From Chiloscyllium plagiosum (Eukaryota), in assembly GCF_004010195.1 (NCBI RefSeq), contig NC_057749.1:10285500-10305499 (forward strand): a stretch of 20,000 nt of DNA, given 5' to 3'. The notes beneath the pieces are model-generated. The model did not search any database, was not told where the DNA came from, and saw only the letters and a program-made list of their open reading frames with translations. Shown piece after piece: positions 1,727-19,568 of this stretch; position 1 is the stretch's first letter, and the number at the start of each line of letters is the position of its first letter. Made by a program: the position numbers and the translations under genes.

Positions 1727-2445
1727 TAAGAAAATGGGAAAATGATTATTAAATGGTAAAACCATCATGGAATAAGACATGGGTGCCATTTTTCTCATTG
1801 AGCTTTTGAACTCAGCTCATCATTGTTCGACAAGGCGAAATTTGGAAACCAACTGTTCTACTGCGTGGAAAGGTAAAACTAACAGGAGAGGCATTTCCAT
1901 TGTGTCTCTATCTATTCCCATGAAATAACCTTACAGGAGGCTTGGGGAAAAAATGCATTCACTTCCTATCTCACCCACAATTATTTAATATCTGTGGGAG
2001 ATGAAGACCAGGAGAAGAATATGACTTTCTGCACCCCCAGATCTGATTGCGTATTGGTGCCAATTAAATCCCTGACACCTGAGGCTTCCTTGGGCCGTCC
2101 AACTATCCATGTCACATGACCAAACACAGGCTTTGCCAAGTTCTAATAGTAGCAAAATCCAGAGTCTGTAGTGAAGAGAGCTAGAAAATCCAACAGTACT
2201 GTCCATTTTCTGTAGCATCTTCAGATTTGTGACTTATCAACTTTGCCAATCCTACAGTACACTATGGGGGGGCGGGGGGCATACAACTTCTCAACAGCCC
2301 TCTTCACATTTTATGTTTTGGGGGACAAAGAGGGGAAAGAAGAGAAGACATGAACATTGTTAGCTTTATTTGATCAACTACATAGAAAGAGGTTTCTTAA
2401 TGAGGATATAATTGTAGATACGTTCTCACCAACCTGTTCAGAGAT

Positions 2446-2676
2446 AAAAATCACACAACACCAGGTCATAGTCCAACAGGTTTAATTGGAAGCACACTAG
2501 CTTTCGGAGCGACCCTCTTTCATCAGGTGAGTGTCAATACTTCACAATCACATGATGAAGGAGCGTCGCTCCGAAAGCTAGTGTGCTTCCAATTAAACCT
2601 GTTGGACTATGACCTGGTGTGATGTGATTTTTAACTTTGTACACCCCAGTCCAACACCGGCATCTCCGAATCATGA
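2446..2676. mobile_element. Palindromic non-autonomous PLE derivative with 12-bp TSD
   Basis: Inverted arms ~2445-2534 and ~2544-2633, then a ~43-bp unpaired tail. TSD ctgttcagagat at 2434-2445 and 2677-2688. The arm is near-identical to 8803-8887, and each arm has a hammerhead-like motif. Confidence 0.88.
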
Positions 2677-2885
2677 CTGTTCAGAGATGTTATTGTACAC
2701 CTCTGGAGTAGGTATGACCTTAATACAGGTTACCTAGTCTAGAATTAGGGACACAACCACTGCATCACAGAACCTTCAAGGGTATAATTGTATTCTGGTG
2801 CAAATTCTCTGCAAGGAAATAGAATAAACAAAAACTCCAGTGAGCCTCTGGCAATTGTTGAATGAAGGTACCAATTCTGTTCTAG

Positions 2886-3052
2886 ATTTTGGAAATGCAG
2901 CAGCCAATGAAAGCCCATTCATCATGGCAGAGAGCGTCATTTGGTTCCGCTATCACAATTACCTGGCTTCTCAGTTTGAAGCTCAGAACTCCTCATGGTC
3001 GGATGAAGATATATTCCAGCACGCCAGAAAGTGGGTGATTGCCTCGTTCCAG
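2886..3052 (+). CDS. DUOX: Dual oxidase coding exon (peroxidase-homology domain), 167 bp, phase 1->0
   Basis: ttctag|AT TTT GGA...TTC CAG|gtaatt. Translates (D)FGNAAANESPFIMAESVIWFRYHNYLASQFEAQNSSWSDEDIFQHARKWVIASFQ, matching the DUOX motif WFRYHN...W.DEELFQHARKRVIATYQ. DUOX1 vs DUOX2 is not resolvable here. Confidence 0.96.
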
Positions 3053-3124
3053 GTAATTTGGTGAAAACACAAATTTACAATCAATGCTATATATAAACCA
3101 CACTGTTAACATCAGCCTTTGTTT

Positions 3125-6303: not shown

Positions 6304-6810
6304 GGGAGGTGATAGCCTAGTTGTATTATCACTAGACTATTCATCCAGAGACCTTGGTAATGTCCTGGGGAGAAGAATCCTGAAAGAACTGCAGATGACA
6401 GAAATCAGATACAAAACAGAAGTTGCTAGAAAAGCTGAGCAGGTGTGGCAGCATCTGTGGAAACAAAGCAGAGTTAACATTTCAGGTCCAGTGACCCTTC
6501 AAATTTTCAAGAAACTCTGACTCAAATCTGCCATGGCAGATGGTGGAATTTGAATTCAATTAAAAAAAAATATCTGGGGTTAAGGATCTAATGATGACCA
6601 TGAAGCCATTGCTGATTGTCAAAAAACCCCATGTCTTCACTAATACCCTTCAGGGAAGGAAATCTGCCATCCTTACTTGGTCTGGCCTCCATGTGACTCC
6701 AGCCCCAGAGCAATTTGGTTGACTCTCACCTGCCCCTCTGGGAAGTTAGGGTGGGTAATAAATACTGCCCTGGCCAGCAACATCCACTCCCTGCAAATGA
6801 ATTTGTAAAA
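6304..6810 (+). mobile_element. tRNA-head SINE (non-HE1) carrying the tail of the 4460-5165 LINE family; interrupted at ~6372-6513
   Basis: Degenerate A-box-like head (tagcctagttg), body atggcagatggtggaatttgaattcaat...agggaaggaaatctgccatcc, tail agggtgggtaataaatactgccctggccagcaacatccac. A second, inverted copy lies at ~17800-18455. Confidence 0.7.
6372..6513. mobile_element. Half of a PLE-derived palindromic repeat (family of 13521-13749)
   Basis: ctgcagatgacagaaatcagatacaaaacagaagttgctagaaaagctgagcaggtgtggcagcatctgtg...gttaacatttcaggtcc aligns to 13530-13635. Confidence 0.7.
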
Positions 6811-8486: not shown

Positions 8487-8852
8487 GTGATCTGTTTATT
8501 GAGTGTTTTTGTTTACCAAATTCTTTCAAGACAATCCAGTGATAGTCAGTGAGAGATTCTGGGTCAGCCATTGTAATGGAAAGGAACTGCAATTGTACCA
8601 TCAGTATTCAAACCTCTGGACTGCAACATGCGTGTAAAAGTGTATGTTGCCATAACGACTTGAATCCCTGATTGGATTACAGCACACCTCATCAACATTG
8701 CAACAGTGCCATAAATCTAACGGGCAATTATTAAGAACTAATTATAAAATGAATTAGGACATTGTTTTTCTTTCAACAGAACTCATTATATGTGGTTAGA
8801 GTTAAAAATCGCACAACACCAGGTTATAGTCCAACAGGTGTAATTGGAAGCA

Positions 8853-8887
8853 CACTAGCTTTCGGAGCGTCACTCCTTCATCAGGTG
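8853..8887 (-). ncRNA. Minimal type I hammerhead ribozyme motif in the PLE terminal repeat
   Basis: Minus strand reads cac-CUGAUGA-a-GGAGU-gac-GCUCC-GAAA-gc-UA|gug. Intact core, 5-bp stem II (one G-U pair), palindromic stem III (AGCU). Confidence 0.72.
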
Positions 8888-9035
8888 GTAGTGGAGGGCT
8901 CAATCCTAACACACAGAATTTATAGCAAAAATTTACAGTGTGATATAACTGAAATTATACATTGGAAAATTGATTGTCTGTTAAGCCTTTCATCTGTTAG
9001 AATACCGTGATAGTTTCACTTCTTTCATGTGTAAA

Positions 9036-9550
9036 NNNNNNNNNNNNNNNNNNNNNNNNNNNNNNNNNNNNNNNNNNNNNNNNNNNNNNNNNNNNNNNNN
9101 NNNNNNNNNNNNNNNNNNNNNNNNNNNNNNNNNNNNNNNNNNNNNNNNNNNNNNNNNNNNNNNNNNNNNNNNNNNNNNNNNNNNNNNNNNNNNNNNNNNN
9201 NNNNNNNNNNNNNNNNNNNNNNNNNNNNNNNNNNNNNNNNNNNNNNNNNNNNNNNNNNNNNNNNNNNNNNNNNNNNNNNNNNNNNNNNNNNNNNNNNNNN
9301 NNNNNNNNNNNNNNNNNNNNNNNNNNNNNNNNNNNNNNNNNNNNNNNNNNNNNNNNNNNNNNNNNNNNNNNNNNNNNNNNNNNNNNNNNNNNNNNNNNNN
9401 NNNNNNNNNNNNNNNNNNNNNNNNNNNNNNNNNNNNNNNNNNNNNNNNNNNNNNNNNNNNNNNNNNNNNNNNNNNNNNNNNNNNNNNNNNNNNNNNNNNN
9501 NNNNNNNNNNNNNNNNNNNNNNNNNNNNNNNNNNNNNNNNNNNNNNNNNN
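9036..9550. other. Assembly gap (515 N)
   Basis: Run of n directly visible. Confidence 1.
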
Positions 9551-10024
9551 GGTGCCCATTCATCCGTTGGCATAGCCTTTGCTCAGTTTCCCCAATGTAC
9601 CATGCCTCCGGGCATCCCTGCCTGCAACGTATAAGATAGACAATGTTGGCTGAGTCACATGAGTACCTGCCATGTACAAGGTGGGAGGTGTCCCCACGTG
9701 TAATGGTGGTATCTATGTCCACACTCTGACACGTCTTGCAGCATCTACCGTGACAGGATTGTATGGAGTTGTCCTGAGAGCTGGGCAGTTTGCTACGAAC
9801 AATTATCTGTTTGAGGTTTGGCGGTTGTTTAAAGGCAAGTAGTGGAGGTGTGGGGAAGGTCTTGGTGAGGTGCTCATCCTCATTGATAATGTGTTGCAGG
9901 TCACAAAGAACATGGCGTAGTTTTTCAGCTCCTGGGAAATACTGAACAACGAAATCATTATATGTGTTGATCTTTCCACACTCTATACTACGGAGATCAC
10001 AGAGGATGGTGTAAGACAAGAAGT

Positions 10025-10872
10025 AGCCTACTGCCTTTATTGGTTAGGGAACTGAGTTCAAGAGTCAGGATGTCATGTTGCAACTTTATAAGATTTTGGT
10101 TAGATTAGATTAGATTCCCTACAGTGCCCGAAACAGGCCCTTCAGCCCAACCAGTACACACCGACCCTCCGAAGAGTAACCCACCCAGACCTATTTCCCT
10201 CTTACCAATGCACCTAGCACTATGAGCAATTTAGCATGGCCAATTCACCTGACCTGTACATCTTTGGACTGTGGGAGGAAACCGGAGCAAACTCCGCACA
10301 GACAGTCGCCTGAGGCTGGAATTGAACCTGGGACCCTGATGCTGTGAGGCAGCAGTGCTAACCACTGAGCCACCGTGCCGCCCCTTAGACTACACTTACA
10401 TTACTGGGAGGATGTGGATGCTTTGGAGAGGGTACAGAAGAGGTGTACCAGGATGCTGCCTGGATTAGAGCTATAAGGAGAGCTAGAAAAACTCAGTTTA
10501 TTTTCTCTGGAGCGACCAAGGGGAGACTTGATAGAAGTTTGTAAAATGATGAGATGCATAGATAGTCAGAACCTTTTTCCCATGTTGAAATGTCTAAATC
10601 TAAGGGACATGCATTAAGGTGAGAGGGGGAAAATACAAAGGAGATGAGAGGGACAAGTGTTTTACACAGAGTGGTAGGAGTCTGCAATATGCTGCCAGGG
10701 GTGGTGGAGGAGGCAGGTACGATAGGTTTGTTAAGGGACTTTTAGATAAGCACATGAATATGCAAGATGGAGGGATATGGATCAAGGACAGGAAGGGGGA
10801 ATAATCTAATTTGGTATCAGTTTTGGCACAACATCGTGTACCAATGGACCCTTTCCTGTGCTGTACTGTTTA
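10025..10872 (+). mobile_element. Degraded CR1 LINE 3' fragment interrupted by an HE1 SINE
   Basis: gtcatgttgcaactttataagattttggttaga|...|ctacactt (VMLQLYK.LVR.HL), gatgtggatgctttggagagggtacagaagagg, tail cctttcctgtgctgtactgtt. Confidence 0.8.
10105..10384 (-). mobile_element. HE1 SINE, internally deleted, TSD TTAGA
   Basis: Reverse complement of the 1397-1726 family. TTAGA at 10100-10104 and 10385-10389. Confidence 0.88.
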
Positions 10873-12686: not shown

Positions 12687-13032
12687 GGGTGGTGTGATGG
12701 CTCAGTGGTTAGCACTGCTCCACACAGCGCTAGGGACCTGGGTTCAATTCCACTCTCAGGCGACTGTCTGTGTGGGGCTTGTACATTCTCCCCATGTCTG
12801 TGTGGGTTTCCTCTCGGTGCTCTGGTTTCCTCCCACAGTCTGAAGATGTGCAGGTTAGGATGGATTGGCCATGCTAAATTGCCTATGGTGTCCAGGGATG
12901 TGTGGGTTAGGTGGATTGGCCATGGGAAATATAGGAGAATAGCATTTGGAGAGTGGGTCTGAGTGGGGTGCTCTTCGGAGGGTTGGTGTGGACTCAGTGG
13001 GCCGAATGGCCTGGTTCCATACTATAAGACTG
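12687..13032 (+). mobile_element. HE1-type SINE, older subfamily (CpG-decayed)
   Basis: tggctcagtggttagcactgct, gggttcaattcc, V-domain core, and a duplicated ggttagg(a/g)tggattggccatg block. Confidence 0.88.
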
Positions 13033-13132
13033 TGAACAGAAAGAGAGTTATCTAAAACCCACAATCAACAATGTAATGTCGAGTAATTTTCAGAAACAAT
13101 GGTTTATTAACAAATTGTGCAACTGTGTTCAG

Positions 13133-13520: not shown

Positions 13521-13749
13521 AAAACTGAAAGGACTGCAGATGCTGTAAATCAGAAACCAAAACAGGAGTTGCAGGAAAAGCTCAGCAGGTCTGGCAGCGT
13601 CTGTGAAGAGAAATCAGTGTGAACATTTCGGGTCAGCGGAGTTCTGATGAAGGGCCAGCAGACCTGAAACGTTAACTCTGATTTCTCTTCATAGATGCTG
13701 CCAGACCCCTGCTGAGCTTTTCCAACAACCCCTTTTTTGTTTATGTCCT
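13521..13749. mobile_element. Palindromic PLE-derived element with hammerhead motif
   Basis: Inverted arms ~13558-13634 and ~13661-13738. Probable TSD cc(a/t)ataaaga at 13511-13520 and 13747-13756. Confidence 0.8.
13637..13680 (+). ncRNA. Minimal type I hammerhead ribozyme motif (stem II partly mismatched)
   Basis: cggaguu-CUGAUGA-a-GGGCC-agca-GACCU-GAAA-cg-UU|aacucug. 7-bp stem I and intact core at 13644-13650 and 13666-13669. Predicted cleavage after U13673. Confidence 0.65.
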
Positions 13750-14000: not shown

Positions 14001-14178
14001 ACTGGTGTAGGCTTAGTGTAGATTTGGTGATACAGACTCAGTGGGCCGAAAAGCCTTTTCTGTGTTGTATATTTCTATGTGGCTTGTTGTAAGATTATTT
14101 TTGATAACATCTTTGTACTTTGGGATAATTCTACTCTGTTAAAGGTGCTATGTAAATGCAAGCTGTTCTGTGCAGAGT

Positions 14179-14369
14179 CAAAAAGTGTGGTGCTGGAAAA
14201 GCACAGCCAGTCAGGCAGCATCTGAGGAGCAGGGCAGTCAACGTTTTGGACATAAATTAGGTCTCGCACATCGACTCTCCTGCTCCTCAGATGCTGCCTG
14301 ACTGGCTGTGCTTTTCCAACACCACACGGTTTGACTCTGATCTCCAGCAGCTGCAGTCATCACTTTCTC
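14179..14369. mobile_element. Palindromic PLE-derived element, central hammerhead region degraded
   Basis: Inverted arms ~14173-14237 and ~14270-14339, plus a ~30-bp tail. TSD-like ctgttctgtgcagagt 14163-14178 / ctgctctgggcagagt 14370-14385 (2 mismatches). Confidence 0.75.
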
Positions 14370-14510
14370 CTGCTCTGGGCAGAGTTCCTATTAGCACACT
14401 GGCGAGAAATTAGGAAAGAATTGGAATTGATGCTGTGCAATTTTTTTTTTACTCATTCCAAATTGCTGAAACGCTTGGGTTTGGCTCATTTCCTTTTCAC
14501 TGTGCCACAG

Positions 14511-14683
14511 CTCTTCAGTAAGTTGGCCCAGGAATATGGCGACATATCTGAGCTCGAATTGTGGCCAGGTGGACTGCTGGAGAGTGATGGGGCGCCAGGA
14601 GAACTCTTTACTCAAATCATCGTCGAGCAGTTCCAACGCATACGAGACGGAGACAGATACTGGTTCGAAAATCATCAGAATGG
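14511..14683 (+). CDS. DUOX: DUOX coding exon, 173 bp, phase 0->2
   Basis: gccacag|CTC TTC AGT...CAG AAT GG|gtatga. Translates [57 protein letters not shown](G), containing the hallmark [10 protein letters not shown]. Confidence 0.97.
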
Positions 14684-14740
14684 GTATGAGCTCTCTACTG
14701 CCAACACTTGCATTGTTGCTTACTTGCTGCAACAAAAGCA

Positions 14741-15992: not shown

Positions 15993-16160
15993 CTCATTTA
16001 GTCTTTGTCTGTCACCTTGGAGTGTTTTGGCTGGTATGTTGGTGAAACTGAAAATGAGCAGAGGCTAATAATGAGCAGAATCACAATGGTCCCCAAATGC
16101 ACATGATATGTGGTTTCATTAACAACTGTACATGAACGCTGAACGTGACGGTCATTGACA

Positions 16161-16456
16161 GGGGCGGCACAGTGGCTCTGTGGTTAGCACTGCTGCCTCA
16201 CAGTACCAGGGACCCAGGTTCGATTCCAGCCTCTGTCTGTGTAGCATTTGCACATTCTCCCCGTGTTTGCGTGGGAGAATGGCTTTCCTCCCACAGTCCA
16301 AAGATGTGCAGGTCAGGTGAATTGGCCATTCAAAATTGCCCATAGTGTTAGGTACATTAGTCAGAGAGAAATGGGTCTTGGTGGGTTACTCTTCAGACGA
16401 TCGGTGTGGACTTGTTGGGCCGAAGGGCCTGTTTCCACACTGTAGGGAATCTAATC
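16161..16456 (+). mobile_element. HE1 SINE
   Basis: ggggcggcacagtggctctgtggttagcactgctgcctcac...gggcctgtttccacactgtagggaatctaatc. Confidence 0.9.
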
Positions 16457-16569
16457 AAAACATGGATGCCTCTCCTTTGTGTCACTGTCCAATTTCACCC
16501 CATAAACTCTCCCATTGCTTACTGGAATGAGTGATCCACAGGACTCACAATGTGAATCTATCCAGTTTG

Positions 16570-16820
16570 AGACCAGGTAATCTTAACACATTTCAACCGG
16601 TTAATAAATATAGACCAGATAACACATACAGACCAGTTAATATATATAGACCAGTTAATAAATATAACCCAGTTAACACATATAGATCAGTTAACACAAT
16701 TTGCCAGTTAATATATAGATAGATCAGGTAACACATATAGACCAGTTAATAGACTAGGTAACACATATATATACAGTTAATATATATAGACCAAGTATCA
16801 CATATAGACGAGTTAACACA
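16570..16820. repeat. Degenerate ~18-bp minisatellite (consensus AGACCAGTTAAYAYATAT), about 14 units
   Basis: Visible tandem units agaccagataacacatac, agaccagttaatatatat, agaccagttaataaatat, agatcaggtaacacatat, etc. Confidence 0.85.
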
Positions 16821-17147
16821 GCTGGAAAGCTGTGTTTTGTTTAGGGCAAAAGGCACTACATAAATTTTCTTTCCTCCTGCTTTACCTTAGATGTTTCTTC
16901 TACTGTTTCAGTGTTTTGGACCTTAATAACGCAAACGAAATAGCACAGATAATATTGCACATTTCGAAAGCTGGGGGCCAGCATTGTGCTGGGGAGGTGA
17001 CGGTCATTGTACAAAGCTTCATTAACCTTTCCAGCCAATGCTGAATCCAGTGTCACTATTTTGTTACCAGCAAAGCTATTCTCTTGATCTCACTACATTA
17101 GCAGCAGCAAAGGCCAATGAACTTGTCATCCCATGTTCCTTGTCCAT

Positions 17148-17799: not shown

Positions 17800-18455
17800 A
17801 TATTTGGAACATAGGCATCATTGGCAGAGCTGAAATGTATTGCCTTTGAGAAAGAGATGGTGAGCTATCATTTGGAGGCCTCCAGCTACATCACTATGGG
17901 TCTGGAGGCACATGTAGGCTAAGTCAGGTAAGGATAGCAGAGGCCTTCCCTAAAGGACATTAGTGAACTAGATGTTCTATTTTTAAAAACAACAATCTTA
18001 CAGTTAATAGAATCCCTACAGTGTGGAAGCAAGTCATTCAAGTTCATGTCAGCCCCTCTGAAGAGAATCCTAGCCAGACCCACCCACCCCCCCCCTACCC
18101 TCAAAGTCTGCATTTCTCATGGCCACTTCACACATCCCTGGACACGACGGGCAATTTAGCCTGACTAATCCACTTAGCCTGCACATCTTTAGACTGTGGG
18201 AGGAAACCATAGCACCTGGAGAAAACCCACATGGACACAGGGAGAATGAGCAAAATCCACGCAGACAGTCACCTGAGGATGGGATTGAACCCATCAGTGC
18301 TAACCACTGAGCCACCGTAGCGCCCCAATAGTTAAATAGCTCCCAATACTAGCACCTGCCTTTTTAATTCCAGATTTATTTACTTAAGTATACTTGAACA
18401 CTGCCGTGGAATTTGACTTCATGCCAAATGGATTATTAGGTCATGTTTACTAATC
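17800..18455 (-). mobile_element. Degraded copy of the 6304-6810 SINE, interrupted by HE1
   Basis: ggtctggaggcacatgtaggctaagtcaggtaaggatagcaga..ttccctaaaggacattagtgaa and ttaattccagattt are reverse complements of parts of 6545-6720. Boundaries approximate. Confidence 0.6.
18011..18326 (-). mobile_element. HE1-type SINE (same subfamily as 12687-13032), TSD-like AATAG
   Basis: aatccctacagtgtggaagc...agactgtgggaggaaacc...gtgctaaccactgagccaccgtagcgcccc. aatag at 18006-18010 and 18327-18331. Confidence 0.85.
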
Positions 18456-18970: not shown

Positions 18971-19171
18971 GGGATAAATCCGTCCGATTCAATTTGTATA
19001 CTTCAAATTGGAGCTTCGATATGACCAGTACATTTATTTCCCAGTATTACTGGTTAATTTTACTGGCTTTTGCCTTTGGGTTATCTCATTATTGTTTGTA
19101 GGAACGTACTATGCACAAATTGGCTGTTACATTCCTGACAAAACAGTGAATGCACTTCAGAAATTACTTGG

Positions 19172-19313
19172 AGGTAGTGAGGACTGCAGATGCTGGAAAT
19201 CAGAGGCAATAAAATACGGAGCTGGTCCTGATGAAGGGTACTCACTCGACTCTTCTGCTCTTCTGATGCTGCCTGACCTGCTGTGTTTTTCCAGCTCCTC
19301 ATTTTATCGACTC
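19172..19313. mobile_element. PLE-derived palindrome remnant with partial hammerhead core
   Basis: gtgaggactgcagatgctggaaatcagag (reverse complement of the 14335-14365 tail), CTGATGAagg at 19228-19237 lacking GAAA, then tcgactcttctgctcttctgatgctgcctgacctgctgtg. Confidence 0.65.
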
Positions 19314-19376
19314 AAAGAGTACATCAGTGTCCTGCTGCAAAGCATTTTTGATTTTAATTGGCAAAAAAAATGGAAT

Positions 19377-19568
19377 TTAGGGAAGTGAGCAAGGGGTAAG
19401 GTACTTCTGTGATTTTCTGGTCTCTCAGAGCCTGAAGCTGATGTTAGGGAAGTGAGCAAGGTGGAGGATACTTCTGTGATTTTCTGATCTCTAAGTGGCT
19501 GTGTGATGCTGATGTTAGAAACGTCAGCAAGGTGTGATTGTCTGATTTCTTAGTGCCTGTGGGATGCT
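19377..19568. repeat. Tandem repeat of a ~67-71-bp unit, about 2.8 copies
   Basis: Units start ttagggaagtgagcaagg at 19377 and 19444, and ttagaaacgtcagcaagg at 19515. They share tgtgatt(t/g)tctg and gctg. Confidence 0.8.

Follow-up and report, generated by a model that had tools for sequence, protein, structure and literature searches.

The palindromic unit at positions 2446–2676 of the window (the whole 20,000-nucleotide stretch of DNA analysed) is, in our judgement, most probably one dead insertion, the work of a Neptune-type PLE enzyme whose gene lies elsewhere. On the sequence features tested, it is a truncated EN+ PLE insertion of the Neptune type: it comprises a PLE terminus, an inverted 5′ copy arranged head to head, a tail at one end, a short TSD and a minimal hammerhead motif, and its neighbouring relative carries the linker motif discussed below. 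The unit is an ordinary case of an insertion layout described for PLEs since at least 2013, not a self-copying mini-element. An initial annotation had taken it to be PLE-derived, non-coding and inserted by PLE machinery from elsewhere, which we judge right, and had proposed in addition that the back-to-back unit forms a retrozyme-like mobile family, for which we found no support.

Repeat search and pairwise comparison delimit two inverted arms: a tail-less, inverted PLE-end copy resembling a pLTR (2446–2537, minus strand) and a sense, or direct, PLE-end copy (2541–2632, plus strand). The arms differ at 7 of 92 positions and are separated by a 3-nt loop (2538–2540), a head-to-head junction that, according to the contig depth at 2536–2537, is private to this locus. 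These coordinates exclude the TSD; if it is included, inverted-repeat search gives arms of 103 nt that are 90% complementary (2435–2537 and 2541–2643). The 44-bp PLE tail (2633–2676, plus strand) is attached to the right arm only and would shrink to ~38 bp if its inner border lay 6 bp further out. The direct repeats flanking the unit (2434–2445 and 2677–2688, plus strand) are identical at 12 of 12 positions, a score that none of 400 random position pairs with the same spacing reached (best 10). The left TSD copy overlaps the arm homology, with 8 of its 12 letters also fitting the mirrored start of the tail (binomial P ~0.005, for a single test picked post hoc), so the left border is fuzzy by ~6–11 bp; the right copy shows multi-copy depth, as do the next tens of bases. 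The 231-base unit folds at −149.8 kcal/mol (z −20.6), and none of 200 shuffled sequences was equally stable. The inverted arms of ~90 bp, the asymmetric tail and the perfect 12-bp TSD of the initial annotation are thereby confirmed, and its near-identity between the arm and the PLE terminus at 8803–8887 holds as well (92% over 90 bp, 8798–8887, by blastn; 91% over 95 bp by repeat search).

The same head-to-head copy, one-end tail and short TSD characterize described EN+ PLE insertions (Arkhipova et al, 2013, PMC3846280; Craig et al, 2021, PMC8557442, Fig 2; both cited from extracts). The former extract describes a direct pLTR with an adjacent inverted one, a 31-bp tail at one end, TSDs of 8–10 bp and head-to-head palindromes, and the latter an inverted 5′-truncated copy that adjoins the 5′ end and a tail of 30–40 bp at one end only. 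A curation guide (PMC8969392), in its relevant section, likewise describes the typical PLE structure as having a neighbouring inverted pLTR, a tail on one side and a TSD. Compared with the EN+ PLEs of the two papers, the copies studied here are only ~92 bp long and lack an ORF, the tail measures 44 bp, and the TSD has 12 bp rather than the 8–10 bp of the rotifer elements. Among the papers listed, assessed mainly by title, our literature search retrieved no account of such stumps in sharks; Dfam or Repbase may hold a named entry for the family.

A larger relative within the window is a 5′-truncated Neptune-type PLE copy on the minus strand (8795–9954), which contains the linker with a CX-CxxC motif, the start of a GIY-YIG domain (9552–9956) and a hammerhead (8884–8848). 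It is flanked by an exact 12-bp duplication of its own (8783–8794 and 9955–9966) and has neither a tail nor an RT. Its ORF (9552–9956, minus strand) aligns to residues 435–572 of a 643-amino-acid shark protein with the RT at residues 183–309, and the ORF piece shares 75% identity with a shark protein that has RVT_1; the link from this piece to the terminus crosses an assembly gap of N at 9036–9550. Its closest relatives come from Chiloscyllium punctatum (92% identity) and Hemiscyllium ocellatum (88%), among 51 matches from 77 candidates. Pfam returned no family for the 164-amino-acid ORF piece and a protein atlas search gave GIY-YIG/HTH_animal as a lead only; the identity is taken from the homologues. 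Both the ORF piece and its homologues contain the CX2–5CxxC linker, which, according to the extract of PMC8557442, marks Neptune and Nematis and is absent in Penelope and Poseidon, and we prefer Neptune over Nematis by host group. Of the GIY-YIG-encoding relative 6 kb away that the initial annotation had pointed to, the start of the nuclease domain is indeed present, but the copy is 5′-truncated, without RT and split by the N gap. Because it starts downstream of the RT, it cannot have mobilised anything. We considered its closeness as a meaningful relation and rejected this, given the missing RT and the abundance of the family.

The proposed origin of the unit follows from what the PLE literature suggests for such enzymes. 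The GIY-YIG nuclease would cut the two strands 12 bp apart, and reverse transcription would start at the outer site, corresponding to the tail end at 2676, and stop ~10 nt upstream of the hammerhead core; both arms begin 9–11 nt upstream of core position C3. The same event would lay down a second, inverted copy from the inner start site, hence one that is tail-less. This second copy may be primed from the other nick, perhaps aided by a resemblance between target and template, or by fold-back self-priming, after which the truncated ends would be joined head to head and repair would yield the 12-bp duplication. Two primings 12 bp apart, one per start site, would thus account for one arm with a tail, an inverted one without, and the duplication. 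The RNA copied might be a long PLE transcript or just a short one of the end module. In vitro work on Poseidon of Anolis carolinensis (Frangieh et al, 2024, PMC11167929, cited from an extract) shows both strands being cut and extended and two RT start sites delimiting the tail, which would yield one tailed and one tail-less arm. The present case belongs to a different clade, judged by the Neptune-type linker of its relative, and differs in the 8/12 match at the left TSD, whereas the extract describes no homology between the RT start site and the cleaved DNA. Self-priming is favoured for head-to-head palindromes in the cited part of PMC3846280.

A doubtful but possible alternative is that the stumps, rather than being random truncations, are copies of a dedicated end-module RNA of ~135 nt, which would start shortly before the hammerhead and run through to the tail. 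This RNA would be copied by the Neptune-type enzyme twice per insertion, once per nick and RT start site, the tail-less arm would be primed by pairing between the target overhang and the template, and a few junction forms may spread as small palindromic subfamilies. If this reading were true, the very many shark hairpins would be a record from which the steps of PLE integration could be read statistically.

The ribozymes that the unit carries are very probably inactive. The initial annotation had assigned a hammerhead to each strand, and as motifs these exist: motif scans of the unit found one per strand, at 2490–2526 in the left arm (minus strand) and at 2552–2583 in the right arm (plus strand; stem II at 2560–2572, GAAA at 2573–2576, a palindromic helix III and a predicted cut after 2580). 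Each arm fits the PLE-type minimal hammerhead, with an extra nucleotide after position 9, stem II, GAAA and a loopless palindromic helix III (position numbering and minimal-motif definition as in the extract of PMC4209133). Both motifs, however, are damaged by a core substitution. In the right arm, C3 is replaced by A (2552), a position where the family letter is C in 99% of the summed depth. The left arm has an intact C3, but A stands in place of G10.1 (2518), and a G-G combination breaks the inner pair of stem II (2514). The neighbouring copy retains an intact minimal core (8884–8848), predicted by motif only. In forced folds, the hammerhead stems cost 51 (plus strand) and 56 kcal/mol (minus strand) relative to the hairpin. 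A search of Rfam at E up to 1 gave 15 matches, none of them a hammerhead; the microRNA and snoRNA matches were set aside as products of the hairpin or of chance, all scoring below the gathering score. Minimal motifs act as dimers and need a partner on the same strand, according to the text available from PMC4209133, and changes of C3 abolish cleavage in the Anolis element, according to that from PMC11167929. We base the probable inactivity on the core substitutions, the presence of one motif in each strand's transcript, the sequestration in the hairpin and the lack of a hammerhead match in Rfam.

In metazoan PLEs, minimal hammerheads are themselves known to occur as dual motifs on opposite strands (Cervera and De la Pena, 2014, PMC4209133, cited from an extract). 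Those of the unit share with them the extra nucleotide after position 9, the G10.1–C11.1 pair, the palindromic 15.2–16.2 positions and the absence of a helix III loop. They differ in that the two cores are ~25 bp apart, compared with 100–700 bp in Schistosoma, where the pairs derive from truncated PLEs, in that helix I has just 3 bp (by our own pairing), and in the core substitution in each motif.

The palindrome as a family was assessed by contig depth. Four of 24 listed runs were aligned to positions 2200–3099 at 85% likeness: unassembled single-cell RNA reads for organism A (~2% of its run), plus contigs for organisms A, B and C, with those for organism A stemming from another sample under the same organism label. 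Individual pieces were listed for 24 of ~137,800. Summed contig depth is not a copy number: sequence can go missing from contigs, and too few reads may cover the centres of hairpins. In the arm bins (2440–2649), summed depth ranged from 1.3 × 10^5 to 7.7 × 10^6, and in most bins of the unique flanks from 8 to 31, a contrast of four to six orders of magnitude. In the middle of the palindrome (2536–2537), depth was 11 in organism A, where the flanks have 8.4–8.9, and 0 and 5.3 in organism B, with flanks of ~10. The value of 15.5 in organism C came from one 92-base contig with nine substitutions and five gaps, which probably derives from another locus, since this divergence far exceeds the 3–4% of the flanks. 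Across the family, tail ends pile up at 2667 and 2673–2677, followed by unrelated flanks, and the arm-to-arm joints listed (15 of 509) lead from the left to the right arm at 15 different places, none of which matches the junction of 2446–2676. Family copies therefore have a fixed outer end but head-to-head junctions that vary. The initial annotation had proposed to test whether copies share ends and layout: the outer tail end is indeed common, but the junction differs in all 15 joints listed of 509, and although such variable junctions, which it had named as a refutation, speak against its reading, arm lengths need not be random, as it had supposed for independent truncations.

Some other junction contigs stand well above single-copy depth, with values of 770 and 517 in organism A (compared with 8–9) and 340 in organism C (compared with 21–31). 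Joints at 2507–2575 (770 in organism A), 2483–2546, 2502–2587 and 2466–2623 have 10–90 times single-copy depth, and those at 2465–2631 and 2466–2623 are present in all three organisms. The high-depth joints lie at or near short self-complementary hammerhead spots and so could recur independently; they represent either spots where fold-back happens repeatedly or small palindrome subfamilies that were amplified. Two further signals were dropped: a pile of loose ends at 2445, which might have marked a fixed tail-less terminus, coincides with the point where the window diverges from the family, and alignment starts near 2580–2587, which might have marked truncation at the cut site, look the same as a subfamily with a 2-bp deletion or contig breaks. 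Pattern scans of metagenome and viral contigs gave no matches, a result that is uninformative for a shark repeat.

These observations make it improbable that the whole palindrome is a non-autonomous family that is transcribed and re-inserted in trans in the manner of retrozymes. PLE termini are sufficient in cis for mobilisation in trans (PMC3846280, extract) and non-autonomous PLE derivatives are known (PMC8557442; bioRxiv 10.64898/2026.07.22.740005; extracts); a minority variant common to both arms, the other junctions at 10–90 times single-copy depth and the one organism C contig with a similarly placed centre also speak for such a family. Set against this, the centre has single-copy depth in organism A and is nearly absent in organism B, for which reason the mobile family of the initial annotation is not upheld. 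Moreover, hammerheads on opposite strands, each with a core substitution, cannot dimerise on one RNA, their stems carry the energetic cost given above relative to the hairpin, and a near-perfect hairpin of 92 bp would presumably be a poor template for RT. The non-LTR retrozymes described by Li, Clavereau and Pollet (bioRxiv 10.64898/2026.07.22.740005, cited from an extract) are likewise non-coding, derive from PLE terminal repeats and carry a type I hammerhead. They form head-to-tail tandems with hammerheads on the same strand, whereas 2446–2676 is head-to-head and single-copy with damaged cores. A head-to-tail tandem, same-strand hammerheads and a complete core per unit were all missing from the unit, and the label retrozyme-like does not fit an arrangement of head-to-head arms with damaged motifs on opposite strands.

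The dead insertion that we favour appears to stem from one event. Both arms carry the mirrored variant C2467/G2611, at which 96–97% of the depth shows the other letter, and at further positions the two have letters in common that the 8803 copy lacks. This shared rare variant and the single enclosing TSD point to one insertion from one source lineage. It is correspondingly improbable, to about the same degree as for a mobile palindrome, that a one-armed stump later gained its inverted arm by a template switch during replication, or that two independent stumps came to lie back to back. The 7 differences among 92 arm positions would suit such a history, and in so abundant a family insertions could well land next to each other; yet a single 12-bp TSD surrounds the arms and tail together (0 of 400 random pairs reached 12), the arms share a variant found at 3–4%, and the layout is seen in three other insertions in the window and is described in PMC8557442 and PMC3846280 (extracts). 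A DNA-transposon MITE with long terminal inverted repeats is highly improbable: the unit is short, non-coding, palindromic and flanked by a duplication, and palindromic Harbinger MITEs occur in Xenopus (PMC5625713, extract), but the 44-bp tail separates the right arm from the TSD, which also bears out the initial annotation in setting the unit apart from TIR-bounded MITEs, and the arm equals a PLE 3′ end, the junctions vary and a PLE-type minimal hammerhead is present.

The flanks of the single insertion were also followed in the other two organisms. Left-flank contigs of organisms B and C can be aligned as far as 2445, after which 14 unaligned letters follow, and their right-flank contigs start within the duplication, at 2682 and 2679; no contig spans the site, and the flank contigs fit an empty site in an older repeat. 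The flanks differ at 16 of 664 positions in organism B and 23 of 667 in organism C. If the site is empty in organism B, the 7 of 92 differences between the arms exceed the 2.2 expected (P ~0.008; ~0.04 for organism C). Two different template molecules, or mutation driven by the hairpin, would explain this excess divergence better than a simple fold-back, unless the reading of an empty site is mistaken. Arms of almost equal length are not expected from purely random truncation.

Further repeats are found across the window. A second PLE family has three head-to-head insertions, at 13525–13740, 14173–14370 and ~19170–19313, which differ in their junctions and each have a one-sided extension. The first has a candidate duplication matching at 11 of 13 positions and the second one at 14 of 16, whose last 6 letters fit the mirrored template (8 of 16 overall); for ~19170–19313, no convincing duplication was found. 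An end of the same family at 6380–6501 is single-armed, and an intact minimal hammerhead core of this family is located at 13644. The TSD at the tail-less end resembles the mirrored template at 2434–2445 (8 of 12 letters) and at 14163–14178 (6 contiguous letters), and shows little of this at 13744. A 233-bp insert at 226–458, read by eye, lies inside a CR1-like LINE fragment and contains a hammerhead-like core near 385–420 between 13-bp repeats (213–225 and 459–471); it probably represents a third PLE family. The remaining repeats comprise an 18-bp tandem array (8 copies of a 54-nt reference) with a spaced repeat of 67–71 bp, at 16583–16830 and 19366–19534, and one SINE-like family with five copies in both orientations (1397–1708, 10130–10385, 12687–13041, 16160–16459 and 18142–18293).

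The family is transcribed. In the RNA run, 2281 of 12.96 million records matched, 56 of them at a likeness of at least 99%. No reads fell on the left flank and one to two on the DUOX exon, and with so few flank, exon and high-likeness reads, nearly all of this RNA derives from other family copies. These transcripts use an ATTAAA signal (2592–2597, plus strand) and are polyadenylated 12–13 nt past it, after 2609 (340 reads) and 2610 (397 reads), counts that refer to reads, not molecules. Upstream, 510 reads continue into sequence resembling the 8890 copy in its 3′ untranslated part. Among the rows listed, read starts or ends formed no pile, and a poly(A) single-cell library is not expected to show linear or circular RNAs of unit length. 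Because the poly(A) site precedes the tail and follows the predicted hammerhead cut by ~30 nt, these RNAs could not serve as templates for the complete end of the element. Stumps of this type may supply poly(A) sites to host genes.

The window spans part of a host gene that encodes a dual oxidase, with exons at 2888–3052 (plus strand; matching DUOX1 residues 234–288) and 14508–14684 (residues 474–522). Because residues 1–233 must be encoded further upstream, the hairpin should reside in the preceding DUOX intron, ~200 bp upstream of exon 2888–3052. The right flank (2677–2770) is multi-copy, with a depth of 2 × 10^4 to 4 × 10^4 at 2680–2709 that drops to 1 × 10^2, so the insertion probably struck an older repeat, which may resemble a tRNA-derived SINE.

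The value of 2446–2676 is that of a data point: it is one among very many dead PLE end-stumps in the shark genome and, alone, matters little. Intronic hairpins of this kind are potential double-stranded RNA, and PLEs are heavily A-to-I edited in a lizard (PMC5625713, extract); for 2446–2676, this is a potential only. How PLEs form their inverted ends and one-sided tail is still called undefined in the available part of PMC8557442. Short, clean insertions with a known duplication, a rare variant shared by both arms and a template-like target could, over thousands of loci, separate twin priming from fold-back.
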